Of a stretch of 64,000 nucleotides of DNA, positions 6,414 through 45,905 are shown piece after piece. The position numbers were made by a program, and so were the translations under genes. Source of the stretch: Gammaproteobacteria bacterium (GTDB taxonomy: Bacteria; Pseudomonadota; Gammaproteobacteria; Pseudomonadales; Azotimanducaceae); contig VXYL01000070.1 of the NCBI GenBank assembly GCA_009846005.1, positions 277,699 to 341,698 of the forward strand, read 5' to 3'. Under the pieces are notes generated by a model. The model saw only the letters and a list, made by a program, of their open reading frames with translations, was not told the DNA's origin and did not search any database. Within the stretch, counting starts at the first letter, position 1; the number at the start of each line of letters is the position of its first letter.

Positions 6414-8837
6414 ATGCTCAAGGCCATGGTGCAACGCACTCGACGCTGGCCGTCGTGGCCGGTCGCAATCTGCCTCGCCGGGTTGATTGGCGGCATCGAC
6501 GCGGCTGAACGTTCGATGACGGGCAGCGTTCTGCATCTCGGGGGCGGCACGGCGGCCGTCGACGCGCCACTCGCCATCCCCCGCTTCTCGGAAGCCGAGG
6601 CTGCCATCCGCCTCGACGGCACACTCGACGAACCGATATGGGCGCACGTGCCTGCCTACGACAGGATGACCCTCATCCGGCCCGACAAGGGTGGCACGGG
6701 CCGCTATCGGACGCAGACGTTCATCTTCCATACCGAACGTGGCATGTACTTCGGGGCCTGGAACGAGCAGCCAGCGGACTCGTTAACGCCAAGACTCGCC
6801 GGTCGCGACGGCTGGGGAACGGGCGACGCCTACCAGGTCATGATCGACAGCTCTGGGGACGGCCGCTACGGGTACTGGTTCATGGTAGTGCTCGGCGGCA
6901 CCCTTGCCGATGGTCACCTTATGCCCGAGCGCCGATTCAGCAGCAACTGGGACGGCCCCTGGCGTGGCGAAACTCGCGAAGCCGACGACGGCTGGACGGT
7001 GGAGATGTTCCTGCCATGGTCGATGATCGACATGCCCGCAACGGACGGGCCGCGGCAGATGGGGCTCTTGATCACCCGCGACCTCGCCTCGATCAACGAG
7101 CGTTGGGCATGGCCCGGCCTGTCGTGGATCCAGCCGAAGTTCATCTCGGCGTTCCAGCCGATGGTCTTCGAAGGGGTCGCGCCCCGTCAGCAGATCAGCG
7201 TCTTCCCCTACGCCACGGTCCTCGCCGACATCGCCCGCGACCACCGGGACCAGAAGGCCGGCGTCGACGTGTTCTGGCGACCATCCACGGCGTTCCTTCT
7301 CAATGCGGCGGTGAATCCCGATTTCGGCCAGGTCGAGGCCGACGACATCATCGTCAACCTCTCCGCCTACGAGACCTTCTTCGAGGAGAAGCGACTGTTC
7401 TTCACCGAGAACCAGGAGGTCTTCCGCGGCAGCACGTTCGGGCCGGACCTGCTTCACACCCGGCGCATCGGCTCGTCGGTCGGATCCCGCCGCGGCGGTC
7501 CTGACTTCGAGCCCGGTGTCGCCTTCGACCCCTACGACACCGGCAAACCCGTGGATCTCCTCTTCGCCGCCAAGGGCATCGGCCAACTCGGCAACTGGCG
7601 ATGGGGTGCGCTGGGCGTGGCCGAGGACGATACCCGGCTCGCGCTGCGCAACGCCGCCGGCAGCATCGACGCCGCGGGTCGAAGATTCGGCGTAATGCGT
7701 TGGCAGCATGAGAACACCGCCCGCGGTGCCCGTCGTGCCATCGGCTGGATGGGAACCGTCGTCGACCATCCGGCCCGGCGCGCCGTCACACACGGCATGG
7801 ACGGCCACTATCGAACCGTGGACGCGAAATGGACCTGGGATGGTCAGTTGTACTACAGCGATGTGCCGGACGGCACCGGAGCAGGGGGGCACGGCCAGGT
7901 GCGTTGGGCGCCTCGCCGGGGTGACTTGCACGTCCTGCGCGTGGACCACTACGACAATGAACTCGACCTTAACGACGCCGGCTTCATTTGGCGCAACGAC
8001 TACCGCGGTGTCTCGTACAGCTTCGACCGTCAAGACCATCAATCCGAACGGTTCCGCGAGGTGTATAGCCAGTTCTCGACGTTTGCCGACTTCAACGGCA
8101 GCGGCCGTCGGATCGGCAGCGTCGTCGACATCGCGCGACACTGGTCGTTCCAAAACAACACCCGCGCCACGCTGCGCGGCGTCTTCCGCCCCGGACACTG
8201 GGATGATCGAAACAGCCGCGGCAACGGCGACTACCGTGTCAAACGCCATGCCGGAGTCCTGGCTAGCTGGGGAAGCGACACGTCCAAGCGTCTCTACTCC
8301 TTCGTAGGCGGCCAAGCCCGCACCGAGCCCGAGGGGGGGTGGTTCTTCGAAGCGAATGTCGGTACGACGTGGCGACCCTTCCCCCGGCTCACGGTCTCCC
8401 CAGGGCTCATATACATCCATCGCGATGCCTGGGTGCTCTGGCAGCACGATCGCCGCTTCGAGGCATTCGAAACCGAGCAATGGTCGCCGCGCCTTCGCTT
8501 CGACGCGTTCTTCACCGCACGTCAGCAGTTGCGGATCCAGGTCGAATGGACAGGGCTCAAGGCACATGGGGCAAAGCGCTTGATGATCGCCCCGGGCGGC
8601 AACCTCGTGCCGAGCGGCATCGCAACGGATCGGTTCGCGATCAGCAGGATGACCGTGCAGGTCCGCTACCGCTGGCAGATCGCACCTCTCTCGGATCTCT
8701 TCGTGGTCTACAACCGCAACGCCTCGCTGTTCGAGTCGTCCACCGAAAGGAGCTTTCTCGATCTTCTGGACAGTGTCTTCGACGACCCGCAGCGCGAAGC
8801 CCTGCTCGTCAAGCTCCGCTACCGGTTCGGCCGGTGA
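6414..8837 (+). CDS. DUF5916 / CBM9-like domain outer-membrane protein
   Basis: 807 aa. There is an N-terminal signal-like segment, a CBM9-like IRLDGTLDEPIWAHVPAYDRMT and the DUF5916-type motif NPDFGQVEADDIIVNLSAYETFFEEKRLFFTEN. The C-terminal half is beta-rich. Confidence 0.7.
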   Translation: MLKAMVQRTRRWPSWPVAICLAGLIGGIDAAERSMTGSVLHLGGGTAAVDAPLAIPRFSEAEAAIRLDGTLDEPIWAHVPAYDRMTLIRPDKGGTGRYRTQTFIFHTERGMYFGAWNEQPADSLTPRLAGRDGWGTGDAYQVMIDSSGDGRYGYWFMVVLGGTLADGHLMPERRFSSNWDGPWRGETREADDGWTVEMFLPWSMIDMPATDGPRQMGLLITRDLASINERWAWPGLSWIQPKFISAFQPMVFEGVAPRQQISVFPYATVLADIARDHRDQKAGVDVFWRPSTAFLLNAAVNPDFGQVEADDIIVNLSAYETFFEEKRLFFTENQEVFRGSTFGPDLLHTRRIGSSVGSRRGGPDFEPGVAFDPYDTGKPVDLLFAAKGIGQLGNWRWGALGVAEDDTRLALRNAAGSIDAAGRRFGVMRWQHENTARGARRAIGWMGTVVDHPARRAVTHGMDGHYRTVDAKWTWDGQLYYSDVPDGTGAGGHGQVRWAPRRGDLHVLRVDHYDNELDLNDAGFIWRNDYRGVSYSFDRQDHQSERFREVYSQFSTFADFNGSGRRIGSVVDIARHWSFQNNTRATLRGVFRPGHWDDRNSRGNGDYRVKRHAGVLASWGSDTSKRLYSFVGGQARTEPEGGWFFEANVGTTWRPFPRLTVSPGLIYIHRDAWVLWQHDRRFEAFETEQWSPRLRFDAFFTARQQLRIQVEWTGLKAHGAKRLMIAPGGNLVPSGIATDRFAISRMTVQVRYRWQIAPLSDLFVVYNRNASLFESSTERSFLDLLDSVFDDPQREALLVKLRYRFGR

Positions 8838-8982
8838 ACCGCTTCTGCACGGCGGGTCCGGAGTGGTTAAGATAGGTGCGGGGAGATTCAGGCCGCAACG
8901 CTGGAGGCAACTCACGCAGCGGCCACCACGGAGTTGGCTCAGTGAGTTCGCTGCGCCCTCTAGCCAGTAAGAACGTTTAACG

Positions 8983-9222
8983 ATGCCCATAGGGCCGAAC
9001 GGCGAAAAAAGACCGCCAGCCGTGATTGCGAACGCGGTGATCAGCATGAGGATCGCCACCGGCGAGGCCAGTGAGACGATCGTCGAGACCGACGTCTCAC
9101 CACGAGTCAGCACCGCCGTTCCGGCCAGCGGACGACGTCCCAGCCGCATTACGATGCTCGCCGCCGTTGCCCGATGGGGCCCTCCACGACGTGACGCGAA
9201 CAGGGCGATCAGCAGTGCCTAG
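8983..9222 (+). CDS. small conserved hypothetical protein (GPNGEKRP..VI.NAV..MRIATGE family)
   Basis: The N-terminus MPIGPNGEKRPPAVIANAVISMRIATGE and the later AAVARWG resemble a short protein family I recall from plasmid and mobile contexts. This rests on memory only. Confidence 0.45.
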   Translation: MPIGPNGEKRPPAVIANAVISMRIATGEASETIVETDVSPRVSTAVPASGRRPSRITMLAAVARWGPPRRDANRAISSA

Positions 9223-9237
9223 CCCGCACCCCCCGAG

Positions 9238-9978
9238 TTGCAGATGAACCGTCTACCCACCGCCAAGCGCGCGGCGATCCTGCGCATGCTGGTGGAGGGA
9301 TCGTCGATGCGTTCGATTACCCGCGATGACGGCGTGAGCATCAACACCATCGCCAAGCTTCTCAACGATGCCGGCGACGCAGCGAAGGCTTTCCTCAACG
9401 AACACGTACGGCAGATACCCGATCGTCGCCGGATCGAGTGCAGCCAGACCTGGGCGTTCAGCCACTCGACGGCGGGATCACGCGGTGATCGGACCCGAGA
9501 CACCGACGACACGTGGACCTTCGCAGCGATCGACGCGGACAGCAAATTGATCGTGTCCTGCGAGGTGGGCGACAACAGCCAAACGACCACCGCCGCTTTC
9601 CTCGAGGACGTGCGACGAAGACTGAGCGAGACCCCCGTACTGTCGACCAACGGTCTCAAGGGGAACCACGATGTCGCGGACATTCGCATGGCCAAGCGTC
9701 CGAGGAGCGTCGACACGCCGAAATCGGATGGCAGCAGGCCGCAGATGCCCTCGAACACGGAGAAACGCCGGCTCGAGAAGCATGTCGCGATGATCAATCT
9801 CTACGCCTTCCACTACAACTATTGCCGAGTGCACCCGGCACTGGGCATGACGCCCGCGATGGCGGCGGGGCTCGACGACGACATGCGGGACATGACCTGG
9901 CTCGTCGACCTGATCGACAAGCGCGCGGGCAAACCCAACCGACCAAAGACCTACCGCAAGCGCGTCCATTCAAACTGA
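9238..9978 (+). mobile_element. IS1-like (HTH + DDE) transposase gene, probably degenerate
   Basis: The N-terminal HTH is MNRLPTAKRAAILRMLVEGSSMRSITRDDGVSINTIAKLL and the C-terminus is YNYCRVHPALGMTPAMAAGL, both typical of this transposase family. The ORF is only 246 aa. The expected CDEIW reads CSQTW, TTDGHKAY reads STNGLKGNH, and the segment that should carry the catalytic Glu appears deleted. I found no terminal inverted repeats. Confidence 0.6.
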
Positions 9979-9992
9979 GACACAGTCGGACA

Positions 9993-10021
9993 TTGTGTGC
10001 CGAGGGCGCTTGTTGTACGTT
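9993..10021 (+). promoter_or_regulatory. possible sigma70-type promoter for the RiPP precursor (TTGTGT-N17-TACGTT)
   Basis: The hexamers at 9993-9998 and 10016-10021 have 17-nt spacing and lie about 40 nt upstream of the precursor start. This is a weak match found by eye only. Confidence 0.2.
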
Positions 10022-10059
10022 GACCGATGCCTCTGCTGCTTCCGACAGGAGGTGCCGAA

Positions 10060-10371
10060 GTGAGAGCAACCGAAATACTGGAACTTTTGTTGTCGAGAGC
10101 GGGTGAAGATCCGGAGTTCAGATCCCGCCTGTTGTCCGAACCGGAAGCGACCCTCAAGGATGAGTACGGTTTCGCTGTCCCGGACGGGATGAAGCTCAAG
10201 GTCATCGAAGATTCGAAGACCACGGCCCATCTCGTGCTACCACCGAACCCGCAACTGACGATGGACGAAATGCGTGCCGTCAGCGGCGGGATCGGCGCAG
10301 TCGACGACAACAGCGCCGGAAGCAATTCCAGCGATACCGACTGGCAGAACCACCCGATCTTCCACGACTAA
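10060..10371 (+). CDS. NHLP (nitrile hydratase leader peptide) family RiPP precursor
   Basis: The leader VRATEILELLLSRAGEDPEFRSRLLSEPEATLKDEYGFAVPDGMKLKVIEDSKTTAHLVLPPNPQLTMDEMRAVSGG matches the NHLP leader pattern (AWeDpeFk..Ll.nP, LvLP.nP, ..eL..VaGG). An AGGAGG Shine-Dalgarno at 10047-10052 lies 7 nt before the GTG at 10060, so the track start at 10027 was trimmed. Confidence 0.85.
   Translation: MRATEILELLLSRAGEDPEFRSRLLSEPEATLKDEYGFAVPDGMKLKVIEDSKTTAHLVLPPNPQLTMDEMRAVSGGIGAVDDNSAGSNSSDTDWQNHPIFHD
10291..10368 (+). other. predicted core peptide IGAVDDNSAGSNSSDTDWQNHPIFHD (26 aa) after the double-glycine cleavage site
   Basis: The core follows the SGG motif that C39 peptidase-domain exporters recognise. 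It contains 5 Asp, 3 Asn, 4 Ser, 2 His, 1 Trp and 1 Pro, and has no Cys, Lys or Arg. Confidence 0.65.
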
Positions 10372-10454
10372 GGACGGGATCCGGCTTCACCGGTCGCGAC
10401 TGGCTACGTCCACCGGGCGTTGGTTTCGCTCGGATTGCCCGTGCCCGATGCCGA

Positions 10455-10480
10455 TTGACGATCGTTGCCGTGATCGTCAA
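10455..10480 (+). promoter_or_regulatory. stem-loop between precursor and export genes (possible processing or attenuation element)
   Basis: TTGACGATC-gttgccgt-GATCGTCAA forms a perfect 9-bp stem with an 8-nt loop. No U-tract follows it. Confidence 0.3.
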
Positions 10481-10631
10481 CATCGACCGACAACGCCGCT
10501 AGCGGCGCCTAGAAGACCGTCCGCCTCCTTGAACGCGTCCCATCGCAGGACCGGCGCTGTGCAACGCACGCCTCAACTGCGCATGCTGTTAGCCGCCGCC
10601 TCCACCCCGGCCACGCCGACCGCACTAACCC

Positions 10632-11279
10632 GTGCCCCGGTTTCCCTGGGTTAGGCCCCAACGTGCGCGTTCAACGCGCAAGCCCAACGCCGACTCGCCG
10701 GGCGCGTCGTCGAGCTACTACGGACTCCTTCCGAACCGGCTGTTCAATGACGAGGCCTCGAGGAATCGCGCCGAACTCGAGCCCATCGACAACCTGACGC
10801 GATCCACGACCCCGCATGCGGCGCATGTGACCATCGCCATTGGTGCGCTCGCAATCGCCGTCGCGGCATGGCTGACGCTGGGCCGTGTCGACCACAGCCT
10901 GTGGTTGACCGGCAAACTCGTCGACGCGGACGCAGCGACCGCAACGCAAGGCCTTCGCCCCGGGGACGTCATTCGGATCGAAACCGAGGTCCGTCCCCCC
11001 GATGTCGACCTGTTGCTTGCTGGCAGGAAAGTCCTCCTGTTCACAAGCACCTCGACCGACACGTTCGTGGCGGGAACGGTCCGCCACATCCACGTCCTAA
11101 CGCATGCGAGCCTCGATGGTCCCAACGCGACGGTTAGGCTCGACATCGAACACGACCCATCGTCGCCGCTCGTGCCGCCGGACTCCCACGACTACCGGCT
11201 GCGCATTCCCATCGGCACGCAGCGCCCGCTTGAGATGCTTCTCGGTTTCGCGAAGACACGGTCGGCCCGAGAGCCATGA
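10632..11279 (+). CDS. HlyD-family adaptor of the NHLP/bacteriocin export system, unusually short
   Basis: It has a single TM helix (VTIAIGALAIAVAAWLTLG), beta-rich lipoyl/barrel-like segments (GDVIRIE, VAGTVRHI) and a terminal GTQRPLEMLL resembling the HlyD C-terminus. Its stop overlaps the next start (ATGA at 11276-11279). The start (GTG at 10632) is uncertain. Confidence 0.55.
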   Translation: MPRFPWVRPQRARSTRKPNADSPGASSSYYGLLPNRLFNDEASRNRAELEPIDNLTRSTTPHAAHVTIAIGALAIAVAAWLTLGRVDHSLWLTGKLVDADAATATQGLRPGDVIRIETEVRPPDVDLLLAGRKVLLFTSTSTDTFVAGTVRHIHVLTHASLDGPNATVRLDIEHDPSSPLVPPDSHDYRLRIPIGTQRPLEMLLGFAKTRSAREP

Positions 11280-13474
11280 ACCCGGTGATCACCAAGCTTC
11301 GACGCCGGCTGCGCCCGATTCCGCGAACACCCCTGTTCCAGCAGATCCAGGCGAGCGAATGCGGCGCGGCCAGTCTCGGGATCCTCCTCGCCCACTTAGG
11401 TCGGTGGATTGGAATGAACGAACTCTGCAGAGCCTGCGGCGTGAGCCGGGATGGGTGTTCCGCGGCCGACATCCAACGCGCCGCCGCAGGCTACGGCGCC
11501 GAAGTCACGGGGTGGCAACGTTCGGGGGAGTACCTGAAGAAACTGGAAGCGCCAGCGATTCTGTTCTGGGAGTTCAATCACTTCCTGGTACTCGAGGGAT
11601 TCAAGAACAGCCGCTACTACATCAACGACCCGGCGAATGGCCGCTACTCGCTGGACGAGGCGACGTTCGCAGAGCGCTATATGGGCATCGTGCTGCTGGT
11701 GCGACCGGGTTCGGATTTCACGCCCTCGGAACGCCCGGCGAACCTCCGGTCCCGCCTGTTGCCCTGGCTGGGCGAACATCGCATCCAGATCGGCGTCGCA
11801 TTCGTCTTGGGTCTCTTGATGGCCGCTCCGATGCTGGCTCTGCCCGAGTTGCTTCGCTACTTCACCGACGCGGCCATCGGCAGCTCTCCCCCGTCGGTAA
11901 CGCTCGTGGTCGGCGGGACCGTCGGTATCGCCACAGTTATGTTCGGACTTCTCTGGCTACAACAGCGCGTCCTGCTCGCTGTTAGCGTGCGCATCGCGCT
12001 CGTGCAATCCGAACGGTTTCTGTCCGCCTTGCTGCGTCTGCCGATGGAATACTTCGCACAGCGATTCTCGGGGGAACTCGCCTCGCGTGCCCGCCTGCTG
12101 GACCGAATCGCCAACACGGCGACCACACGGTTGGCTCGACTTGCCATCGAATTGACCATGAGCCTCATATTCCTCGTCTGGATTGCCCTGCAGGACTCGG
12201 TACTCGCTGTAACGGCCGCTGTCGTGGCGATCCTGAACGTATTCGTCGTGCGTCTCGTCTACGATCGTTGCAGGCACGAAAACTACCGACTGCGTCGCAG
12301 TCAGAGCATGCTCTCCGGCATCGCGGCGACGGCGCTGAAAAACCTCGATACGCTTCGGGCATCCGGAACCGAGGGCGACTTCTTCACGCGCCTGTCCGGC
12401 TACCAGGCACTTGAACTGCGCTACCGCCTGCGATCGGCCGAACTCGGCGCTTTCACGAACGCGCTGCCGCCGTTCTTCCTCATGGTGGGAGGAGCGGTGG
12501 TGCTTGGGGTCGGGGGCATGCGCGTCATCTCCGGGGACATGTCGATTGGAGACGTCGTGGCAACCTACTTTGTCATCGGCAGCTTTTTGCTGCCGATCGG
12601 CAAGTATGTCGAGTCGACCGGACTCATCCAGATGTTGGAAGCCGATCTGCAGCGGGTTCAGGACATCCAGGACGCCGACCCCGGACCCGGTGCAGACACT
12701 CTCGAGACAGACGGGGCGAACCGTCTGTTCAGCATCGGTCGACGGGTCCGGCTCGCGGGTCGGCTGGAACTGCGCGATGTCACCTTCGGCTACCGGCTTC
12801 ACCACGACCCGATCATCGAGGGGTTCAACCTGACCCTCGAGCCAGGCCAGCGTGTGGCACTGGTCGGCCCGAGCGGGTCCGGCAAATCCACGATCGCGTC
12901 GCTAATCGCCGGCATCTATCGACCGTGGACCGGCCAGGTTCTGTTTGATGGCCATGAGCGCGACGAGATACCGCGCGAAGTCGCCATCGACTCGGTTGCC
13001 TATGTGAGCCAACGCGTCAATCTGTTCTCCGGCACGGTCCGCGAGAACCTCACCATGTGGAATCCCACGGTGCCGGACGCGCTGGTCGTCGATGCGGCCC
13101 ACGACGCGCAAATCCACGACGAGATCGCCCAACGGCCATTGGGCTACGACACGACGATCGAGGAAGGTGGCCAGAACTTCAGCGGCGGCCAACGTCAGCG
13201 TTTGGAGATCGCGCGCGCACTCGTGCCGCGACCGTCCTTGATCATCCTCGACGAGGCGACGAGCGATCTCGATGCCGCAGTGGAATCGCGCATCGACGAC
13301 TCGTTGCGCAGGCGCGGCTGCGCCTGCCTGATCGTGGCCCACCGGCTGAGCACGATCCGGGACAGCGACGAGATCCTCGTCTTGGATCAGGGCAGGACGG
13401 TTCAGCGCGGCCAACACGAAGAACTGATGCTCGACAAGGCCGGCATCTACCACGACCTCGTGACGTCCCAGTAG
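11276..13474 (+). CDS. NHLP-family bacteriocin export ABC transporter, C39 peptidase/permease/ATPase
   Basis: The C39 domain has a catalytic Cys (QASECGAASLGILLA), His (FWEFNHFLVLEG) and Asp (INDPANG). It is followed by a 6-TM ABC permease, Walker A GPSGSGKST, the signature FSGGQRQR and Walker B IILDEATS. Confidence 0.9.
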   Translation: MNPVITKLRRRLRPIPRTPLFQQIQASECGAASLGILLAHLGRWIGMNELCRACGVSRDGCSAADIQRAAAGYGAEVTGWQRSGEYLKKLEAPAILFWEFNHFLVLEGFKNSRYYINDPANGRYSLDEATFAERYMGIVLLVRPGSDFTPSERPANLRSRLLPWLGEHRIQIGVAFVLGLLMAAPMLALPELLRYFTDAAIGSSPPSVTLVVGGTVGIATVMFGLLWLQQRVLLAVSVRIALVQSERFLSALLRLPMEYFAQRFSGELASRARLLDRIANTATTRLARLAIELTMSLIFLVWIALQDSVLAVTAAVVAILNVFVVRLVYDRCRHENYRLRRSQSMLSGIAATALKNLDTLRASGTEGDFFTRLSGYQALELRYRLRSAELGAFTNALPPFFLMVGGAVVLGVGGMRVISGDMSIGDVVATYFVIGSFLLPIGKYVESTGLIQMLEADLQRVQDIQDADPGPGADTLETDGANRLFSIGRRVRLAGRLELRDVTFGYRLHHDPIIEGFNLTLEPGQRVALVGPSGSGKSTIASLIAGIYRPWTGQVLFDGHERDEIPREVAIDSVAYVSQRVNLFSGTVRENLTMWNPTVPDALVVDAAHDAQIHDEIAQRPLGYDTTIEEGGQNFSGGQRQRLEIARALVPRPSLIILDEATSDLDAAVESRIDDSLRRRGCACLIVAHRLSTIRDSDEILVLDQGRTVQRGQHEELMLDKAGIYHDLVTSQ

Positions 13475-13499
13475 GCGGACACCGGCGGATTCGGTCAAC

Positions 13500-16364
13500 A
13501 TGGGCAACATCGTAAGCCGAGACACACACCGCGCCGCGTTTCCGCTGGCCGGCGACAGTTCCGCTTGGCGCGTCGACTCGGGCGCCGTCGACGTGTTCTT
13601 CGTCCACGTCAACGACGGCATCGTCAACGCCCCCTACAAGCACGTCCTGCGCGCCGCAGAGGGGCAAGTGATCTTCGGCATCGACCCGTTGGACTTGGGC
13701 GACGACGGACAACTGGAGCTGTGGGCCAAGGGCCTGCCAGGCTTCTCCCTCCACGCCACGACGGTCGGCGAGCTAATCGACCGCGACGACGCCGTGGCCG
13801 CCCAGGTCGACCAGTGGATAACCAGCTTCACGGACTCGGTTGCCCGCGACATCATGCCCGTGCCTCGCGCGGATGCGTTCGTCTCACTCGGTCATGTTCC
13901 GGACCTTCAGGCCGTCAAGGTCGTATCCGCCCGGGGCGGCGTGGTGTGGTTGTCGGGGCTCAGGGCGGCTTCCTACCTCGGTTTGGTCGACGCCACCGAC
14001 CACGATGCCGATTGGCTCCCGTTGACCCTGCAAAGCTGGGTGACGGTGTCGGGATCCCAGGACACCGTCGTCGCGGCGTCGAGCGCGCAGCTACACGAGA
14101 GCGGAACGCTCGAAGAGGCTCTCGGCAAGTTCCACCGGCGCTTGCTCGACGCCGAGCGGGTCAACAGGCTGCTCGAGGTCGTCGACGAAGCCAATCTTCA
14201 GATGGACCGCTCCACGCGGCGGCGCGAAGACGAAGAGCAAGCCCGGGACGAACTCAAGCGCCTGTTCGAGCAAACCGACTCCGACGCTGCAATACCCGCG
14301 CTCCATGAAGCACTCAACGCAGTAGGGGCGTACGAGGGTTTCGAGTTTCAGTTCCCTGATCCCGACCCCGACGCCAGCCACGGCGATCCGGTTGTCGAAA
14401 TCGCGTTCAGTTCAAGGGTGCGGGCGCGCGCCGTCCGGCTCGACTCCGTGACCCGCTGGTGGTTCGGCGACAACAGCGCGCTACTCGGCTTCCACAGCGA
14501 GAGTGGATCCCCTATCGCACTCCTGCCCGGGCGTTTTGGGCGCTACCGCCTACGAGATCCCGCGACGCGCAAGACGACGACAGTGACCCGGGCCGTGGCG
14601 GGCAAGCTGCACAAGTATGCTTGGATGTTCATCCGCCCCCTCCCCGAACGACCGGTCAAGGCCAGAGATGCGCTGAAGCTGTTCGCGAACAAGACCGGCA
14701 GCGATTCGATCCGGTACGCGGTCAGCGGACTCATCGCCGGCCTGATCTCCTTTGCGCCGGCCGCCATGGTCGCCGTCATCGTGGATTGGCTGATACCGGC
14801 GCGAAGCGACGGCTTCCTCTACCTGGCCATGGCGACCCTGGTACTGCTCGCAGTCGCGGGATGCCTTGTCCAGCTGCGCCAGGGCACGACCTTGGTGCAC
14901 GTCGAAGGGCGCGGTGCCGCACGGCTAACGGCCGCCATCTGGGATCGCTTGCTGCGGCTCAAGCGCGACGATGTTCGCGGATTCAAGACCGGCGAGATCT
15001 CGCAACGGGCGTTCGTGGTCCAGGCACTGCGCGAGAACACCTCCGGCATCGTCTCCGGCACGCTCAGTTCGATTCTCTTCCTGCTGCCGATACTCGGCCT
15101 GCTGTTCCTCTACGATGCGACCCTGGCAACGACAAGCCTTGCCTTGGGAGTTCTCGGCCTCATCGTCGTCGCGAGCTTCGGGTTCCGCCAGGTCACGTGG
15201 CAGCGTCGATACCACGACGCGCAGCAGACCCTGGCGGGCGACATGTTCCAGTTCGTGAACGGCATCGAAAAGTTGCGGGCCACCGGCGCGGAGAGTTCCG
15301 TTTTCGCGTTCTGGGTGCGCGGCTATCTCGACAAGAAGCAAGCCGAGATCAAGGTAGAACGCTTGAACGCCCTGGCAACCGCCGTGACGGGATCGCTGCC
15401 GATGTTCGCCGCTGCCTGCCTATTCGCCGTCGTCTTGATGCGCCCGGACGGGCCCATAGAGCTTGGCGCATTCCTCGCCGTGTTCGCCGCTTCGATGACC
15501 TTCTTCAGCGCGATAACGCGAATGGGGGGCTCGGTCGGTGCCCTCGCTTCGCTGTTTCCCGCCTATCAGCAACTCAAGCCCCTGTTCGACCCGTCCCTCG
15601 AGGCCCGGACATCGGCAAGCGTCGCTCCCATCCGCCGAATCCAGGGGGAGGTGCGCCTTGACCATGTCACCTTCAGCTACGAGGAAGCCGGGCCCCAGGT
15701 ACTTCGCGATGTCTCGCTGCACGTCCGACCCGGCGAGTTCGTCGCCATCGTCGGCGAATCCGGGTCGGGAAAGAGCAGCCTGCTCCGTCTCATCCTGGGA
15801 TTGGAACGGCCCTCAACCGGCGCGGTGTACTTCGACGAACGAAACCTCCGCTACCTCGATGACCTCGCGCTACGCCGCCAGATCGGGGTCGTCATGCAGA
15901 ACGGCTCGCTGCAACCCGGGACGATCCTCCAGAACATCGTCGGAATCAACAGCGAGGCCACCCTGGAAGATGCCTGGTCCGCAGCGCGCAAGGCATCCCT
16001 GGCCGACGACATCCGGGCGATGGAGATGGGCATGCACACACCCGTCGGCGAACATTCAGGGCTGTTCTCGGGTGGCCAAGTACAGCGCATCCTCATCGCG
16101 GCGGCACTCGTGAGAGACCCGAGCATCATTCTGCTGGACGAGGCCACCAACTGGCTTGACAACAAGAGCCAGGCGGAGGTCATGCGCAGCATTGGTGAAA
16201 TCGCCGCAACCCGTATCGTCGTCGCACATCGGCTGTCCACAATCAAGAACGCCGACCGGATCTACGTCCTGTCACACGGCCGGGTCGTCCAATCGGGTAC
16301 GTTCACGGAACTCGCAGCGGCACCGGGAACGTTCCAGACCCTAATCGCCCGCCAAGTGACGTAG
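13500..16364 (+). CDS. NHLP-family bacteriocin export ABC transporter permease/ATPase with cNMP-binding-like N-terminal domain
   Basis: The N-terminus (WRVDSGAVDVFFVHVNDG..HVLRAAEGQVIFGI) is like the cyclic-nucleotide-binding-like domain of the second NHLP exporter subunit. The nucleotide-binding domain has GESGSGKSS, FSGGQVQR and ILLDEATN. Length is 954 aa. Confidence 0.85.
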   Translation: MGNIVSRDTHRAAFPLAGDSSAWRVDSGAVDVFFVHVNDGIVNAPYKHVLRAAEGQVIFGIDPLDLGDDGQLELWAKGLPGFSLHATTVGELIDRDDAVAAQVDQWITSFTDSVARDIMPVPRADAFVSLGHVPDLQAVKVVSARGGVVWLSGLRAASYLGLVDATDHDADWLPLTLQSWVTVSGSQDTVVAASSAQLHESGTLEEALGKFHRRLLDAERVNRLLEVVDEANLQMDRSTRRREDEEQARDELKRLFEQTDSDAAIPALHEALNAVGAYEGFEFQFPDPDPDASHGDPVVEIAFSSRVRARAVRLDSVTRWWFGDNSALLGFHSESGSPIALLPGRFGRYRLRDPATRKTTTVTRAVAGKLHKYAWMFIRPLPERPVKARDALKLFANKTGSDSIRYAVSGLIAGLISFAPAAMVAVIVDWLIPARSDGFLYLAMATLVLLAVAGCLVQLRQGTTLVHVEGRGAARLTAAIWDRLLRLKRDDVRGFKTGEISQRAFVVQALRENTSGIVSGTLSSILFLLPILGLLFLYDATLATTSLALGVLGLIVVASFGFRQVTWQRRYHDAQQTLAGDMFQFVNGIEKLRATGAESSVFAFWVRGYLDKKQAEIKVERLNALATAVTGSLPMFAAACLFAVVLMRPDGPIELGAFLAVFAASMTFFSAITRMGGSVGALASLFPAYQQLKPLFDPSLEARTSASVAPIRRIQGEVRLDHVTFSYEEAGPQVLRDVSLHVRPGEFVAIVGESGSGKSSLLRLILGLERPSTGAVYFDERNLRYLDDLALRRQIGVVMQNGSLQPGTILQNIVGINSEATLEDAWSAARKASLADDIRAMEMGMHTPVGEHSGLFSGGQVQRILIAAALVRDPSIILLDEATNWLDNKSQAEVMRSIGEIAATRIVVAHRLSTIKNADRIYVLSHGRVVQSGTFTELAAAPGTFQTLIARQVT

Positions 16365-16481
16365 GGGACAGGCTTGTCCCGTCCCGTGGCCAAGTGAGCC
16401 GCCTGTCCGGCCCGGGCGACCGCGGCTTCGGGCGCGTTGGGGTCGCCCCAATCGGTCCCTACGGTTCTTGTCCAGAAGACC

Positions 16482-17978
16482 TCAACGGGTTGCCGGGTGG
16501 AATGCCGACACGGCATCGTCCTTGATCAACTGCATGAGGAAAGCGTCGATGAACTCGTCCGGGTACCCATCGCGGCAGATCGCCTTGAGTTCCTCCACCG
16601 ACATCGAATCCGATCGGGCTAGTGCACTAATCAAGTCGAGACACCGAATGTCGAATCTCCGCTCCATGCCATTCGCCCTGAGCACGAAGGTGCCCTTGGC
16701 GAGGCACGTCTCGATCGCGGCGTGCCGCCGACCCTTGAGCGAGAGTCGAAATCCGTTCCATAGCGGCGACTTCCAAGGCTCAATATAGGTCGACAGCGAT
16801 GTCCGGCTCGCCTCCGTCCACGACGCCCTGATATCCGATTGGAATCGATCACCCAGATCGTCGACCAACTTTCCGCGAATCAACGCCACCAAGCGCTGGA
16901 AATAGTCCCTGCGGCTCGCCTCGTCCGCCGCCAAGGGCGTGTTCTTGCGAAACACCTCGTGGTCGAGAAGTGTGTTCTCGAGCCAGCGCATAACCCAGGT
17001 ACCTGTTACCGGCCGGGTGCTGAGCGTCAGATGAATGCTGCCCTTTCCGTCATCGACTTCGTCGACCCGGGCATCGTGCCACCATCCCCGTGGAACATAG
17101 AGCACGTCCCCCGCAGTCAACTTGCCCGACCAAACCGGTTCGTCGGGTCTGTCCAGATTGGGCCGGTTGTCCAGCTTCGTCGGAAGGTTCCGGGTCTCAC
17201 CGAAGAGGTGCCACCGCTTCTCCCCAACCGCTTGGATGACGTACACGTCGTGATCGTCCCAGTGCGTCGCGAAGCCTCGCGTCGATCGCCACGAGGCGTA
17301 CAGATTGACGTTCACGTAGGTCGCGAGACTTCGTTCGATTTCGTCCGACAGCCTGCGAATCGGCTCGTGGTAGTCATGAACCGCGTTGGCGATGAAAGTC
17401 GCGCCGCTGCGCAGTAGATTGGCCAGTTTCCGTGCGTCTACTCTCGATACAAACGGACCGGGCTGCCGGGTACCCAACCCGAGGTTGTCGATCTGAAAGA
17501 GGTCATCGGCGACCTCCACGCCGTCCATGACGACATGCAACTGCGGCGGCCGGAGATTGCGGTTGCAGATGGCATCGTTCAAATCATCCCAGGTGATCAA
17601 CCCGGCAAACCGATCATCCGGGCCTCGAAGAACCAACGGCCTCGGCTCGCGATACTGCTCGCGGTAGAAATCGGTGACGTCCAGCGGCGCAACAAGCCTT
17701 GCGAGTCCCTCCAAGCCGTCGCGATCGCAACCCCGGGCGTCGAGCTCGCCGACGCCTGGGCGCTTGGCTTCAGCCCGCTCAACGTCCCCGTCCCGCGCCG
17801 ATTCCAGTCGAATGCGCATGTTCGGGACATCCGCTCGCTTGGAAAGAAGACCGAGCACCGCCTCGTCGTGCCTTTCTTCCCGGCGGTGCACGTGATGGTC
17901 GACGGGTCCGGCGGAAGCGAGTTTCTTGCCCAGGAACATCTCGTGCGCCTTTGGTGTTCGGTCGGCCATGGCACTCAT
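16482..17978 (-). CDS. JmjC / cupin-4 Fe(II)- and 2-oxoglutarate-dependent oxygenase (RoxA/YcfD-like) with C-terminal winged-helix-like domain
   Basis: GFATHWDDHDVYVIQAVGEKRWHLF carries the HxD motif and LYVPRGWWHDARV the distal His, as in ribosomal oxygenases. The C-terminal ~120 aa is helical/wHTH-like. The N-terminal ~90 aa may be an over-extension; alternative in-frame Met codons exist. Confidence 0.8.
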   Translation of the reverse strand: MSAMADRTPKAHEMFLGKKLASAGPVDHHVHRREERHDEAVLGLLSKRADVPNMRIRLESARDGDVERAEAKRPGVGELDARGCDRDGLEGLARLVAPLDVTDFYREQYREPRPLVLRGPDDRFAGLITWDDLNDAICNRNLRPPQLHVVMDGVEVADDLFQIDNLGLGTRQPGPFVSRVDARKLANLLRSGATFIANAVHDYHEPIRRLSDEIERSLATYVNVNLYASWRSTRGFATHWDDHDVYVIQAVGEKRWHLFGETRNLPTKLDNRPNLDRPDEPVWSGKLTAGDVLYVPRGWWHDARVDEVDDGKGSIHLTLSTRPVTGTWVMRWLENTLLDHEVFRKNTPLAADEASRRDYFQRLVALIRGKLVDDLGDRFQSDIRASWTEASRTSLSTYIEPWKSPLWNGFRLSLKGRRHAAIETCLAKGTFVLRANGMERRFDIRCLDLISALARSDSMSVEELKAICRDGYPDEFIDAFLMQLIKDDAVSAFHPATR

Positions 17979-18095
17979 GCTGGATGCGCGGACTGCCCTC
18001 GATCATACCGCAGGCGAGAAACGGCGACGGCGATTGCGCCCCGTAGGGGACCGGCGTGTGCGGTCCCGGCGCAGATGCTGCTTCCCATGCAGACG

Positions 18096-19337
18096 CTACG
18101 CAACGACCGTCGGTCCGCCACCCTGCAAGACACGGTCGCGGTAGTCGTTGGGGTGTCTTCGGGCGTTGGCGTTGTGCTCCCGCCAGAGCGCCACGAACCA
18201 GTCGGGCACCTTTCGGTCACCGCATTGCGCCGCCAGGCGGTTCATGTAGTCCATCTGACCGTCCTCAAGTCGATGGAAATGGCGTTCCGCCACCCCCGCC
18301 GCCCGCAATGTGTCGATCTCGTCGCAATGCATCCGGCACCGGTCGGCAGGCGATGGCAGAGGAAAGCGGCAGGCGAGCGCACGCGCAAACCATCGCGCCT
18401 GGCGTTGGAACAGTGGGAACGGGACGACGCGGAACGGCAGGCCGATGAACGCAAGGGAGGGATCTTCGACGGCGACGACTTGCTGGTAGAGGCCCTTCAC
18501 CCAGTTGTCGCCGATCGAGACAACGTCGGAACCGAGAAACGGGAACCGGTACCAGTAGCCGGTACAGAACAGCATCGCGTCGACGTCGCGAATCCGCTCC
18601 GTGTTGGTCAGTACGGCGTCCGCACCCTCGAAATACGCTATGGGCGGACACCGCTTGATCCGCCCCGCCTGCTCCCCGAGCGGAGGTTGCTGGTCGAACA
18701 GCCTGCCTGAGAAGAACACCTCGGCGACACCCGCCAACTCGCGCGACAGGTCGCTCCCAGACACCGACGAACCGAGCACGACGACGCGCTGTCCCAGGAA
18801 GTCATCGGGTCGCCGGTAGTTGTGACTGTGCAGCGCCGTACCCGGAAAGTCCGCGAGTCCTCGGATCTCGGGTACCCTCGGTTCCGAGAAGTGTCCGTTG
18901 CACACGGCGACGGCATCGAACCGCTCGCCGTCGACGAGCCAGCCATCGTCCCGGGTCACCTGCCGTACCCGGTAACCCAGGCGCACCGCCTCGCCAATGC
19001 CGGTGTCGATGGCGAAGCGGCGCAGGTACTCGAGCACGCGTGCATGGTGGGGAAAGCGCGGCCAGTCGTCGCGTCCGCCACCGGCACCGTCGAAGGTGTA
19101 CCCCTCGAAGGCCATCAAATCCCTCGGCAGGTTGACGCGCATCGACGCGTATAGCGACGAGTGAATGCGTCGGCTCGGACGTTGTCCGAGCGGGTCGTCC
19201 TCGACGGCGTTCGTGTAGTTCCACAGTCCGCCTACCTGCGCGGACTGCTCGAATACCGTCGCGCGATGCCCTTCAACGACCAGTTCGTGAGCCGTGACAA
19301 GGCCCGCGGCACCGGCACCGATAACGGCGACATGCAC
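18096..19337 (-). CDS. flavin-containing monooxygenase (FMO-type, NADPH-dependent)
   Basis: The FAD fingerprint is VAVIGAGAAGL, GGLWNY follows, the FMO motif is FPGTALHSHNYRRPDDF, and the second Rossmann motif is VVVLGSSVSGSDL. Confidence 0.8.
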   Translation of the reverse strand: MHVAVIGAGAAGLVTAHELVVEGHRATVFEQSAQVGGLWNYTNAVEDDPLGQRPSRRIHSSLYASMRVNLPRDLMAFEGYTFDGAGGGRDDWPRFPHHARVLEYLRRFAIDTGIGEAVRLGYRVRQVTRDDGWLVDGERFDAVAVCNGHFSEPRVPEIRGLADFPGTALHSHNYRRPDDFLGQRVVVLGSSVSGSDLSRELAGVAEVFFSGRLFDQQPPLGEQAGRIKRCPPIAYFEGADAVLTNTERIRDVDAMLFCTGYWYRFPFLGSDVVSIGDNWVKGLYQQVVAVEDPSLAFIGLPFRVVPFPLFQRQARWFARALACRFPLPSPADRCRMHCDEIDTLRAAGVAERHFHRLEDGQMDYMNRLAAQCGDRKVPDWFVALWREHNANARRHPNDYRDRVLQGGGPTVVA

Positions 19338-19362
19338 CCGATGCTCCTATCGCCTGTACGCT

Positions 19363-20070
19363 CTACATCGTTCGCGTACGAAGGCCCTGGCTGACCCGGA
19401 TCTCCATGGTGTGTGCCGTCGCTGGCTGGGTCGCGAGGAATACCGCCGCGTCCGCGATGTCTTCAGCCTGGATGATCGAGTCCGGATCCTCGTTCGGGAA
19501 TCCCTCGCTACGCATCCTTGAGACCGTTGCGTCCGGCAGAATGACGTGGGAACGGATGCCCTGGTAGAGGTATTCGGCGACCAGCGTCTTGGTGAACCCC
19601 ATCACGCCGTGCTTCGAGGCGGCATAGGCGGAGCGATTGCGCGGGCCGACGACGCCGGCACCCGAAGAAATGTTGATGATGCAGCCGCTACGCTGGTCGA
19701 GCATTGACGGCAGCGCGTACTTGGTACACAGGAAGAGCCCGCGCAGGTTGACGTTCATGACGTGGTCCCAGTCCTCCACGGGCAACTCGTGAACCGGCAG
19801 TCGAGCAACCGCTCCGGCGTTGTTCACCAGGATGTCGATTCGACCGTGGGCATCGAGCGCCGCGTCGATCATGCTGCGGATGTCCGCTTCGTCCGCCACG
19901 TCGCAGGGTATGGCCAGCCCGCCGATCGCCTCGGCCACGGCATCGATCTCGTCGACGCTTCGCGCCGAGCAGACGACCGATGCGCCTTCCTTCGCGAACG
20001 CCTCCGCGATGGCCTTGCCGATGCCGCGTCCCGCGCCGGTGACGATTGCCACCTTGTCCCTAAGCTGCAT
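19363..20070 (-). CDS. SDR-family oxidoreductase
   Basis: Motifs present are TGAGRGIGKA, NNAG and YAASKHGV (YxxxK). Confidence 0.85.
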   Translation of the reverse strand: MQLRDKVAIVTGAGRGIGKAIAEAFAKEGASVVCSARSVDEIDAVAEAIGGLAIPCDVADEADIRSMIDAALDAHGRIDILVNNAGAVARLPVHELPVEDWDHVMNVNLRGLFLCTKYALPSMLDQRSGCIINISSGAGVVGPRNRSAYAASKHGVMGFTKTLVAEYLYQGIRSHVILPDATVSRMRSEGFPNEDPDSIIQAEDIADAAVFLATQPATAHTMEIRVSQGLRTRTM

Positions 20071-20160
20071 AGGTGAACTCCCACCTCAACCGAGCGCGCA
20101 GTTTGTGGACACCGCTCGCTGATGGCAAGCGGCCTGGCCGACCCGCGACCGCTTGCCGCC

Positions 20161-42057: not shown

Positions 42058-42268
42058 CGCGTGATCTTCTCAACCTGGACAGCCGCGAGCGCGAGGTTAA
42101 GCCACCAAGCGCGGCCGGTCCATGCGGTGTCGGTGCGGCAGGTTGCATCGCCTACCGCTGTTCACCTACCGTTCGCACCGTAGCGGTACGACCGGAGCGC
42201 AGACGATGTCCGGTGTCGAAGCGATCCGCCCCGTGGACCGGATTGATCTCCTGGAACCACGCCAGACC

Positions 42269-43168
42269 ATGACGATATGCGGTCGCTTCCGCACGCGAGT
42301 GGCGGTGTGGACCGGCATCGCCCTGATCGGTGCTGCGGACATCACGATCGGGCAAACGGTCGTCGACGTGCCGTTGATGCGCGGGGCGGGACACCCGACC
42401 CAGCAAGGGTTCGTCCGGGTCACGGCAGTCGCGACGGGAACCATAGCGATCAATGCCTGGAACGACGCCGGGGAGGCCGCGTCCGCGTCTCTGTCCGTGG
42501 AAGGCGGCAGAACCGTCCACTTCAACTCCGACGACCTCGAGTTCGGCAACCAAGCCAAGGGGATTCCTGCTGGCCTTGGATCGGGCTTCGGCGACTCGTT
42601 TGTCCAGCTAAAGGCCGACTTCGAGTTTGTCGCCACCTCCTATGTGCGAACCGGCGACGGCTTCCTCACTGCTATGGGGAACATCCTCGTACCCGTCGAC
42701 GGGGATGCGTTCGGCACCGCATGCGTGTACGAAGCAAACATCTTCAACCCGGCGTCGAACACTGACCAGGTCAGCAGCCTGCGCATCGTCGAGCGGGCGG
42801 GCGACGACACGGCGGTCAACATCTATGGCGTCGATGACCACGGCATCACCCATGGTCCCGTGGGACTCACCGTGCGGGCGAACGGCGCTCGCACGGTGAC
42901 GTCCCAACAGTTGGAGCACGGTGACCCCAGCCTGACCGACACGCTGCCGGATGGTGCCGGAAAGTGGCGGCTTGCCATCGCTACGGACGGTGCCATCGTC
43001 GTCATGAACCTGCTGCAATCGCCCACTGGCCACCTTTCCAACCTCGGTCCGGTGGTCTTGTCCATGGATAGCGATTCCGACGACCTCGAAACCCCGCGAG
43101 GATGTACCGGCGCACCCCCTCACCGCCTAGTCGCCCGTCCCGGGCCGTCCGCCGGCAACCTGCGCTGA
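42269..43168 (+). CDS. secreted hypothetical protein with two tandem ~105-aa beta-rich modules
   Basis: The signal-like N-terminus is MTICGRFRTRVAVWTGIALIGAA. An internal repeat is visible by eye; see the findings. The start could also be 42206 or 42122. Confidence 0.5.
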   Translation: MTICGRFRTRVAVWTGIALIGAADITIGQTVVDVPLMRGAGHPTQQGFVRVTAVATGTIAINAWNDAGEAASASLSVEGGRTVHFNSDDLEFGNQAKGIPAGLGSGFGDSFVQLKADFEFVATSYVRTGDGFLTAMGNILVPVDGDAFGTACVYEANIFNPASNTDQVSSLRIVERAGDDTAVNIYGVDDHGITHGPVGLTVRANGARTVTSQQLEHGDPSLTDTLPDGAGKWRLAIATDGAIVVMNLLQSPTGHLSNLGPVVLSMDSDSDDLETPRGCTGAPPHRLVARPGPSAGNLR

Positions 43169-43178
43169 GGAGGCAACC

Positions 43179-43712: not shown

Positions 43713-43769
43713 CGATCGCCGGTTGGCCGTGCTCGCCGTTTCCCGCACCGACCGGTATTCCCGTTCCCG

Positions 43770-45842: not shown

Positions 45843-45905
45843 CCCCAACGCGTCCACGGCAGGTCTTTCCGATTACGCTCGCTCTTCACCCGAAGGAATG
45901 ACGAC

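Follow-up and report, generated by a model that had tools for sequence, protein, structure and literature searches.

A ROX-type JmjC oxygenase gene linked to an NHLP-leader precursor gene and its exporters: a candidate RiPP locus in a gammaproteobacterial genome

The locus of interest lies in a 64,000 bp stretch of gammaproteobacterial contig VXYL01000070.1 (this whole stretch is referred to below as the window). It consists of five genes: a precursor gene for a putative peptide made on the ribosome and modified after translation (RiPP) with a leader of the nitrile hydratase leader peptide (NHLP) family, three export genes, and, on the opposite strand, a gene for an Fe(II)/2-oxoglutarate (2OG) oxygenase of the JmjC family that resembles the ribosomal oxygenases (ROX). 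The features and their window positions are as follows.

10060..10371, + strand: precursor gene, 103 aa from a GTG start at 10060, TIGR03793 match
10291..10368, + strand: core region IGAVDDNSAGSNSSDTDWQNHPIFHD, a variable G/S/T/D-rich spacer followed by a conserved 12-mer
10632..11279, + strand: shortened HlyD-like membrane adaptor, 215 aa, one transmembrane helix, homology via a protein of locus L039
11276..13474, + strand: C39-peptidase ABC exporter (ABC1), with Peptidase_C39 (1.6e-27), ABC_membrane and ABC_tran domains
13500..16364, + strand: second ABC exporter subunit (ABC2), 954 aa, TIGR03797 match
16482..17978, − strand: ROX-type JmjC Fe(II)/2OG oxygenase, 498 aa, PF08007 match
16485..16781, − strand: predicted C-terminal winged-helix/RiPP recognition element (RRE)-like domain of the oxygenase (residues 400–498), from a domain model and Foldseek

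The precursor matches the NHLP-leader model TIGR03793 with 62.8 bits (cut-off 50.9), covering model positions 3–77 of 77. An in-frame ATG at 10027 provides an alternative start (114 aa); the start at 10060 is supported by an AGGAGG box located 7 nt 5' of the GTG, and the 22 close precursor homologues are annotated mostly from this start. The 103 aa consist of a 77-aa leader ending in MRAVSGG and a 26-aa core, beginning with IGAV, that contains no Cys. The corresponding cleavage position reads GG, GA or AG in 69 related precursors. Alignment of 20 orthologous precursors (70–98% identical) reveals two points of interest in the core. Firstly, the spacer behind the GG site varies (Gly/Ser/Thr/Asp). 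Secondly, the C-terminal 12-mer, D[TS]D[WY][QT][NQD]HPIF[HR]D, is almost invariant, with two His residues retained throughout the clade of close relatives to which the window belongs (the window clade).

The first of the three export genes encodes a 215-aa protein with no Pfam or NCBIfam match—TIGR03794 included—even at E ≤ 10. The protein is, however, homologous to a 325-aa protein encoded at a related locus, L039 (loci are cited by such numbers throughout): the two are 28% identical over 127 aa encompassing the N-terminus, the transmembrane helix and the start of the barrel, and the L039 protein matches TIGR03794 (NHLM_micro_HlyD) with an E-value of 2.5e-24, itself under the cut-off. The 215-aa protein is thus a strongly shortened HlyD-like adaptor, homologues of which sit at the equivalent position in 22 loci. 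A 4-nt ATGA overlap (11276–11279) couples the adaptor gene to that of ABC1, which scores 809.5 bits (2.4e-243) against TIGR03796 and so narrowly misses the cut-off of 853.3. Similarly, ABC2 scores 672.9 bits (5.6e-202) against TIGR03797, narrowly missing a cut-off of 709.4. Since these are the best matches by a wide margin but lie below the cut-offs, ABC1 and ABC2 are close relatives, not certified equivalogs. Judging by its domains, ABC1 would cut the leader after GG and then export the peptide. ABC2 carries an N-terminal extension of ~390 aa, a region that is conserved in related loci and gives no cNMP or other Pfam match at E ≤ 10.

The fifth gene is convergent with the export genes, leaving a gap of 117 nt to the ABC2 stop. 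Its product matches PF08007 (JmjC_2) with 86.7 bits (1.2e-24; cut-off 22), as well as Cupin_8; NCBIfam names no family for it. In an alignment of 36 homologues, D241 and H301 of the metal triad (H239/D241/H301) are invariant, and H239 is conserved in at least 90%, as is K254, a candidate 2OG-binding residue. The oxygenase residues align with the NO66 motifs HYDD, GRK and H, and we take the Lys aligned with K254 to be the one that binds 2OG in NO66 structures. A profile search of the PDB returns NO66 (5.6e-26), together with MINA53 and YxbC (1VRB), while YcfD-type matches are weak (~1e-10). An AlphaFold model of the oxygenase (mean predicted local distance difference test score, pLDDT, 80.8) is matched by Foldseek to NO66 and MINA53 with E ~1e-22 over 440–480 columns (TM-scores 0.51–0.60). 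In this model, the protein has the three-domain ROX (cupin-4) architecture: (i) a JmjC domain, (ii) a helical dimerisation domain, and (iii) a C-terminal winged helix.

Modelled alone, the C-terminal 99 residues form four strands followed by three helices (pLDDT 90.8). The top Foldseek match is the C-terminal domain of MINA53, and the next neighbours are the RREs of TruD, LynD, ThcOx, PqqD, McbB, PbtF, TbiB1, TbtB and CteB; the TbiB1 structure carries a bound leader. The RRE matches have probabilities of 0.96–1.0 with E-values of only 1e-3 to 0.4, and target-normalised TM-scores of 0.57–0.61 for stand-alone RRE chains. The PqqD-like fold that typifies RREs has three strands ahead of three helices. 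Winged-helix/RRE-like is a reasonable label for the modelled domain. The conserved triad and Lys, the ROX fold and the RRE-like domain together suggest that the oxygenase is catalytically competent.

To survey the remainder of the window, 47 non-overlapping open reading frames (ORFs) were chosen by length and GC content at third codon positions (GC3), and all were scanned against Pfam. Among these 47 large ORFs there is no YcaO, LanM/LanC, radical S-adenosylmethionine (radical-SAM) or multinuclear non-haem iron oxidase (MNIO) gene. These results bear out nearly all of a first-pass annotation of the same DNA, which had proposed an NHLP-leader precursor at 10060–10371 with a Cys-free core, a C39-ABC exporter at 11276–13474 joined to the adaptor gene by an ATGA overlap, a 498-aa JmjC/cupin-4 protein with an intact HxD...H triad and a winged-helix-like C-terminus 117 nt from the exporter, and no known maturase in the 64-kb window. 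Two of its labels are upheld in part: the HlyD-like adaptor is recognisable through the L039 intermediate but has no direct family match, and the second exporter is indeed an ABC protein of the TIGR03797 kind, but the cNMP-like domain assigned to its N-terminal ~270 aa has no Pfam support.

The same five genes, in the same order, are found in related assemblies, and their arrangement is not due to chance. Close relatives of the oxygenase (54–84% identity) have their entire neighbourhood in common with the window, and synteny inside the window clade is for this reason uninformative. The closest relatives of the window are uncultured Pseudomonadales/Gammaproteobacteria metagenome-assembled genomes. 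More distant loci were obtained with a protein search for the family of ~490-aa oxygenase homologues; a survey with one genome per species gave 79 loci, whose six-frame ORFs were searched with the window proteins and with a hidden Markov model built from precursor hits. Thirty of these loci carry a JmjC homologue that is at least 36% identical to that of the window, and one of the thirty is cut by a contig end, leaving 29 informative loci. In 28 of these, the JmjC gene has a precursor gene of the NHLP or Nif11 type no more than 10 kb away (26 NHLP; two Nif11-type, L015 and L017, with TldD/PmbA peptidases). At the remaining locus, L030, no precursor was found within 10 kb; only an ABC2-like exporter and uncharacterised genes are present.

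The linked loci come from Pseudomonadales and other Gammaproteobacteria, Arenicellales, Alphaproteobacteria, Vicinamibacterales (Acidobacteriota), Binatia and Spirochaetia, and their gene orders and flanks differ between phyla. For example, one Vicinamibacterales genome of 6.5 Mb encodes a homologue with 40% identity in a one-strand operon of genes for a PhyH-like protein, NHLP precursor, small adaptor, C39-ABC, ABC2 and JmjC; there the JmjC start overlaps the ABC2 stop, and the flanks are unlike those of the window. In the Vicinamibacterales loci L007 and L013, with the operon order precursor, adaptor, ABC1, ABC2 and JmjC, this overlap measures 4 nt. Many loci contain several precursor genes (12–13 in L034). 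That the pairing of JmjC and precursor persists across phyla with different flanks indicates that the link is real, and the idea that the oxygenase is functionally tied to the NHLP/Nif11 peptide locus is strongly supported by gene context. The first-pass annotation had named as decisive whether JmjC orthologues are generally syntenic with NHLP precursors or exporters; 28 of 29 loci are so linked. It had also regarded the convergent orientation as weakening the case. The genes are convergent in the window, but the nearest precursor lies on the same strand as JmjC in 20 of the 29 loci (median distance 477 nt), and elsewhere JmjC may overlap an exporter gene, making convergence a peculiarity of the window clade.

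A reverse query with the precursor returned 22 hits, all from the window's own clade; the search method depends on shared sequence words, and its reach is too short to give the frequency of JmjC among NHLP loci generally. The oxygenase family as a whole comprises 505 representatives (50% identity clusters) at E ≤ 1e-30, of which ~17 score above 240 bits, high enough for the NHLP-linked clade. A neighbour-joining tree places the JmjC proteins linked to precursors (≥36% identical) in a single clade, within which the window clade groups with the Arenicellales loci L035/L036 and with a set of Vicinamibacterales loci discussed below.

Two further observations concern these homologues. Some genomes hold two JmjC copies or two JmjC–precursor loci—L029 (5–1549 and 9617–11257), L018/L020 and L035/L036—which suggests diversification of the system within one organism. 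In addition, Nif11-type precursors lie by JmjC homologues in two alphaproteobacterial genomes (L088:6805–7164 and 14647–15021; L089:8371–8712, 8772–9110 and 2083–2433). Their cores are hydrophobic and Gly/Ala-rich after GG and end in GDGGW, GDGNW or EDSNW, and TldD/PmbA pairs are located nearby.

The window locus shows the marks of a functional system. The ratio of nonsynonymous to synonymous substitution rates against four orthologous loci is 0.11–0.24 for the precursor, 0.15–0.22 for JmjC, 0.11–0.19 for the ABC proteins and 0.31–0.49 for the adaptor; all five window genes are under purifying selection. Three orthologous precursors were looked up, and each lies in an identical gene order with no canonical maturase. 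The possibility raised in the first-pass annotation that such a maturase would be found next to orthologous precursors, and the locus be a decayed fragment of a larger one, is not supported, given the purifying selection, the conserved 12-mer and the orthologous loci likewise without canonical maturase. In one 59%-identical relative (L005:13366–17209), the exporter genes seem to be split into fragments; the contig has ~4x long-read coverage, at which assembly frameshifts are as likely an explanation, and we do not count this case as decay.

Clues to the residue that may be modified come from a comparison of 69 non-redundant cores from the linked loci, with expectations taken from 1000 within-core shuffles. 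The related cores are acidic and rich in Trp/Tyr. Asp makes up 14.9% of residues and is present in 62 of the 69 cores, while His is found in 26 and Cys in nine. Loci in which JmjC occurs without either of two partner families described below (JmjC-only loci) retain acidic cores with Trp or Tyr, and five of nine such cores contain D[STAN]D (1.2 expected).

A similar preference is seen beside distant JmjC homologues (L040–L087; ~400 aa, 27–35% identical), which are mostly from Pyrinomonadaceae and other Acidobacteriota and at whose loci no NHLP genes were found. Of 44 informative loci, 34 have an upstream Asp-rich repeat ORF in the same orientation as JmjC, usually ending within ~100 nt of it. 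In these ORFs, Asp reaches 35–45% over a 40-aa segment; the repeat units include DADGTD, DSDGSD and DTDGTD, and in 20 loci there is a conserved G-L-L-L-S-V-E-P-L motif near the N-terminus. Three examples are:

L091:7612–8004, same strand as JmjC: Asp-rich repeat ORF
L050:6225–6629, same strand as JmjC: Asp-rich repeat ORF
L068:9620–9988, same strand as JmjC: Asp-rich repeat ORF

By its sequence features, the Asp-rich ORF with its distant JmjC looks like a second, unannotated peptide–enzyme pairing. Kitasatospora homologues follow a 46-aa ORF ending in TDTND. Asp in a D-x-D or D-[ST]-D context would thus be common to the peptides beside the whole enzyme family, the window core containing SDTDW, and this makes Asp beta-hydroxylation the most economical prediction. 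Of the three targets foreseen by the first-pass annotation for beta-hydroxylation—Asp, Asn or His—Asp is favoured by the comparative evidence, whereas His is missing from most of the 69 cores.

We propose that the pathway runs in three steps: (i) the ROX-type JmjC oxygenase would bind the 103-aa precursor, probably aided by its C-terminal RRE-like domain; (ii) it would oxidise the conserved C-terminal motif D-T-D-W-Q-N-H-P-I-F-H-D, the likeliest chemistry being beta-hydroxylation of one or both Asp of D-[TS]-D (+16 or +32 Da), with the modified stretch expected within DTDWQNHPIFHD of the core; and (iii) the C39-peptidase ABC would cut after SGG and, with ABC2 and the shortened adaptor, export the modified peptide. 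As for the product, our guess is an acidic, possibly metal-binding peptide. The reading we prefer, at a probability of about 60%, is therefore one of a compact, functional RiPP cluster of an uncharacterised family, in which the JmjC oxygenase acts on the precursor core and Asp chemistry is likeliest. We are rather confident of one part of this reading, namely that JmjC modifies this precursor; provided that it does, the odds that the chemistry is Asp hydroxylation are about even.

Several points weigh against this proposal. Statistically, the resemblance between the C-terminal domain and RREs is weak, and the domain, inherited from the ROX family, is not RiPP-specific, since ribosomal oxygenases possess it too. 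NHLP leaders are described in a passage of PMC12537861 as large folded domains, which may not use an RRE-type interaction. In the NHLP-linked cores, Trp/Tyr is more universal than Asp (68 of 69 versus 62 of 69), and an aromatic residue could be the target or a cross-link partner. JmjC is convergent with the exporter operon in the window, and may be co-transcribed with a monooxygenase and a dehydrogenase gene on its other side (see below). Finally, two further gene families often accompany JmjC elsewhere; JmjC may thus play an accessory part, in which case the window clade would represent a reduced state.

These two families, F3 and F6, emerged from gene-family clustering of the loci (all-against-all, on genes picked by GC3). 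F3 proteins (~375 aa) are encoded in 25 NHLP/JmjC loci, often as 2–4 copies interleaved with precursor genes, and have no Pfam, NCBIfam or PDB match. F6 proteins (~335 aa) are encoded in 18 loci; the F6 profile matches squalene-hopene cyclase in its QW-repeat region (3.6e-8), together with a 365-aa chain (8paj) whose deposited name is squalene-hopene/tetraprenyl-beta-curcumene cyclase. On this basis F6 may be terpene-cyclase-like or prenyltransferase-like, which is intriguing beside Trp-terminated cores. Examples are:

L013:12595–13671: F3
L024:8077–9201 and 11242–12405: F3
L034: F3 (up to four hits per locus)
L028:18479–19483: F6
L024:18734–19750: F6
L013:11543–12571: F6

Neither family was found in the 64-kb window, its clade, L019, L035 or L036. 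The JmjC-only state is accordingly represented by no fewer than three lineages, namely L019, the window clade and, in Arenicellales, L035/L036. The earlier view of JmjC as the sole maturase may hold for these few lineages, but most related loci carry F3/F6.

The alternative that survives best, though we hold it to be unlikely, is that JmjC does act on the precursor but on another residue: on Trp/Tyr, by hydroxylation or by cross-linking to the C-beta of Asp/Asn, or on His, by hydroxylation. The near-universal Trp/Tyr noted above speaks for an aromatic target. Trp alone makes up 8.6% of core residues, 30 of the 69 cores end in Trp (6.8 ± 2.5 in shuffles), and [DN][WY] adjacency is seen in 44 cores against an expected 30.3 ± 3.6 (maximum 42–43 among 1000 shuffles); in addition, the Nif11-type precursors beside homologues all end in G(G/N)W. 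There is also precedent, in the JmjC enzyme CzlI, which hydroxylates an aromatic residue (PMC11575548), and in an alpha-ketoglutarate (aKG)-dependent enzyme of 2025 that, in the account given by a passage of PMC12636437, forms a Cys-Tyr cross-link in a RiPP. For His, the argument is that two His are conserved in the window clade and that the closest solved relatives are His hydroxylases. Set against this, the Asp-rich peptides beside distant homologues are mostly devoid of Trp (0 or 1 in the scored ORFs), and Trp enrichment is strongest where F3/F6 are present, so that Trp may be the target of F3/F6 instead. His occurs in a minority of cores, as given above, and the reported type of aKG cross-link is inapplicable to a core without Cys.

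A second alternative, which we regard as improbable, takes the window locus for a reduced remnant of a system of precursors, F3, F6, JmjC and exporters that has lost its class-defining step; JmjC would then be an accessory enzyme only, and the peptide would be exported partly modified or be simpler in role. The frequency of F3 and F6 in related loci, their multiple copies and their interleaving with precursors agree with this, and the neighbour-joining tree, in which the window clade groups with an F3/F6-bearing Vicinamibacterales clade, makes loss plausible. However, the five genes are under purifying selection, the 12-mer is kept in 20 orthologues down to ~70% precursor identity, and the JmjC-only state is found in at least three separate lineages. 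Moreover, neither F3 nor F6 was found in the 64-kb window, and their loss would not itself make the remaining system inactive. The third alternative is coincidence, with JmjC a housekeeping ribosomal-protein oxygenase (RoxA/YcfD-like) or a partner of the neighbouring monooxygenase and dehydrogenase, and the peptide exported unmodified in the manner of a double-glycine bacteriocin: in its favour are the ribosomal oxygenases that are the closest solved relatives, the convergent orientation and the uninformative synteny of the window clade, but it is very improbable in view of the co-localisation with precursors, which recurs in unrelated phyla whose flanks and gene orders differ, the far weaker match to YcfD-type proteins (E ~1e-10 versus 1e-26 for NO66) and want of an NCBIfam family name, and the rarity of the clade (~17 of 505 above 240 bits), which does not fit a housekeeping gene.

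A wider version of the preferred reading, that ROX-type JmjC oxygenases are the defining enzymes of a separate RiPP class, we put forward only tentatively and consider it somewhat less probable than its negation. Such a class would have two arms: one with acidic, Trp/Tyr-containing cores on NHLP/Nif11 leaders (Proteobacteria, Acidobacteriota, Binatia and Spirochaetia, often with F3/F6), and one with DxDG[ST]D repeats (Pyrinomonadaceae and relatives), and JmjC alone would be the class-defining maturase in the window clade. If this were true, the product could be a poly-hydroxy-Asp or an Asp-Trp cross-linked peptide, for example a metal-binding peptide of sponge symbionts.

Three neighbouring genes flank the locus:

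9238..9978, + strand: helix-turn-helix (HTH) gene, 246 aa, directly 5' of the precursor, with weak IS1-transposase and HTH matches
18096–19337, − strand: FMO-like flavin monooxygenase (FMO), Pfam FMO-like 1.5e-44
19363–20070, − strand: short-chain dehydrogenase/reductase (SDR), adh_short 6.9e-58

The 246-aa gene, whose product has the HTH at its N-terminus, is syntenic in every window-clade member examined. An active mobile element is therefore unlikely; a domesticated gene that regulates the peptide locus is one possibility. It is preceded by a 79-aa ORF (8983–9222, + strand), whose position upstream of the precursor is likewise kept in those members. Upstream of the JmjC gene, every clade member has the FMO and SDR genes in head-to-tail order; the gaps measure 117 and 25 nt. 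The two genes are conserved in the window clade only, and are absent from the gene families common to the loci of other phyla; they may be co-transcribed extra tailoring enzymes, or mere neighbours. A scan of 9000–20500 found no promoter-like site, and terminator-like sites at chance level, a result with no bearing on co-transcription. Scanning the window for Rfam families and tRNA genes gave no hits.

Farther away, two PhyH genes (30584–32461 and 45906–46661, at distances of 14 and 28 kb) were considered as distal partners of the locus, by analogy with the PhyH-like gene adjacent to the NHLP precursor in Vicinamibacterales. One is 27% identical to the Vicinamibacterales protein over 113 aa (E = 3e-4) and the other gives no match; both were rejected, because the similarity is at superfamily level only. 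Two other regions of the window may be mentioned. At 42122–46661, the + strand carries a run of genes made up of two uncharacterised ORFs of 348 and 177 aa, a subtilase (43770–45842) that has a proprotein-convertase P-domain, and the PhyH dioxygenase at 45906–46661. At 53516–57278 (− strand), a BlaI-like repressor (56898–57278) is followed by a BlaR1-type M56 protein fused to TonB_C (55177–56901) and then by two more TonB_C genes, an unusual sensor/TonB arrangement.

The window locus is a well-supported and easily testable lead for genome mining. With just one precursor and one enzyme, and a LahT150-type protease commercially available for leader removal, the system is small and hence directly testable in E. 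coli. The 69 distinct cores form a ready substrate panel, and the 505 representatives a larger unexplored group, many of them beside Asp-rich repeats; F3 and F6 add two uncharacterised families of partner enzymes. As the producers appear to be uncultured marine and soil bacteria, their products would otherwise be inaccessible.

How does the locus compare with known systems? NHLP/Nif11 precursor systems with the TIGR03794/03796/03797 export set were reportedly described by Haft et al. in 2010. Like the window locus, these systems (proteusins, prochlorosins, thiazole/oxazole-modified microcins or TOMM-type) have leaders of this family, a GG motif, and C39-ABC, ABC2 and adaptor genes in this order. 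They differ in their maturases, which are radical-SAM epimerases or methyltransferases, LanM or YcaO. Proteusins are recognised by radical-SAM action on an NHLP precursor, and there is no Radical_SAM match among the 47 large ORFs; lanthipeptides and TOMMs are recognised by LanM/LanC or YcaO, none of which is encoded in the window, and Cys is absent from the window core and rare (nine of 69) in related cores. A further difference is that the window adaptor has half the usual length and no TIGR03794 match, and that both ABC proteins fall just under the equivalog cut-offs.

The ROX enzymes (NO66/RIOX1, MINA53/RIOX2 and YcfD/RoxA) are the best matches of the window oxygenase in sequence and fold, sharing with it the JmjC, dimerisation and winged-helix domains and the HxD...H motif at an identity of only 16–20%. 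They modify ribosomal proteins, by C-3 hydroxylation of His or Arg, and their genes are not known to cluster with those for peptide precursors or exporters. Neither His nor Arg is a feature common to the cores compared here, and the genomic context argues against a ribosomal-protein substrate for the window oxygenase.

CinX/DurX, CanE and SmaO provide examples of Asp beta-hydroxylation by Fe/2OG enzymes in RiPPs, as do the HExxH-type YhhC/BpmH (PMC12186529). SmaO hydroxylates Asp in the DGDG of a GG-leader precursor (PMC12186529), which resembles both the D-x-D-G-[ST]-D repeats and the D-T-D described here. These enzymes belong to other folds or families according to the texts, which do not state JmjC/ROX, and serve as accessory enzymes in clusters for lanthipeptides, lasso peptides, graspetides or triceptides. 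The aKG-dependent macrocyclase of Xia et al. 2025 (JACS 147:26693), as described in PMC12636437 and cited in PMC12710340, parallels our proposal in being an aKG enzyme that acts on a RiPP, but its chemistry is not hydroxylation, and the Cys-Tyr cross-link is inapplicable to the Cys-free window core.

Closer to the window locus, Bregman et al. 2025 report RRE-like domains fused to PF08007, and bacterial JmjC homologues in RiPP-like contexts (PMC12710340). Loureiro et al. 2022 mention, in one sentence of a bioinformatic study, gene cluster families of NHLP with cupin-4 in sponge microbiomes (PMC9426513); these clusters are probably of the same kind as the window locus, and are mentioned without analysis of cores, distribution, enzyme subfamily or chemistry. 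Our literature search found no paper that mentions both NHLP and JmjC. Nor did the literature searched describe this clade of enzymes, the fact that it is paired with NHLP/Nif11 precursors and is the sole maturase recognisable there, the motif in the core, the partner families F3 and F6, or the Asp-repeat arm. The suggestion of a candidate new RiPP class is overstated: JmjC hydroxylases in RiPP biosynthesis and the NHLP–cupin-4 combination were already known, although this subfamily, with its chemistry and product, is uncharacterised in the literature searched.

In particular, the first-pass annotation stated that, to its knowledge, no JmjC-type enzyme had been reported to mature a RiPP; this no longer holds. 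CzlI, a JmjC Phe hydroxylase in curacozole biosynthesis, was described in 2024 (PMC11575548), and BipG/BpmG and PbsQ, JmjC ornithine (Orn) hydroxylases of biphenomycin-type peptides, followed in 2025 (PMC12707348, PMC12257519). Like the window enzyme, these are Fe(II)/2OG JmjC/cupin proteins encoded in RiPP clusters, and they hydroxylate a precursor side chain depending on the flanking sequence; in structure, CzlI is matched best by YxbC (1VRB; PMC11575548), a protein that the searches with the window oxygenase also returned. These hydroxylases act, however, on Phe or Orn, in precursors whose leaders are short and not of the NHLP type, and they catalyse late accessory steps beside class-defining enzymes (YcaO/cyclodehydratase, or MNIO with B12-dependent radical-SAM). 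The window enzyme, by contrast, has the full three-domain ROX architecture and is accompanied by no other known maturase, a distinction drawn from published descriptions. Should JmjC prove to modify the window precursor, it would be the first case found of a ROX-type JmjC enzyme as sole RiPP maturase, and would provide the first chemistry assigned to an NHLP family without the usual enzymes.

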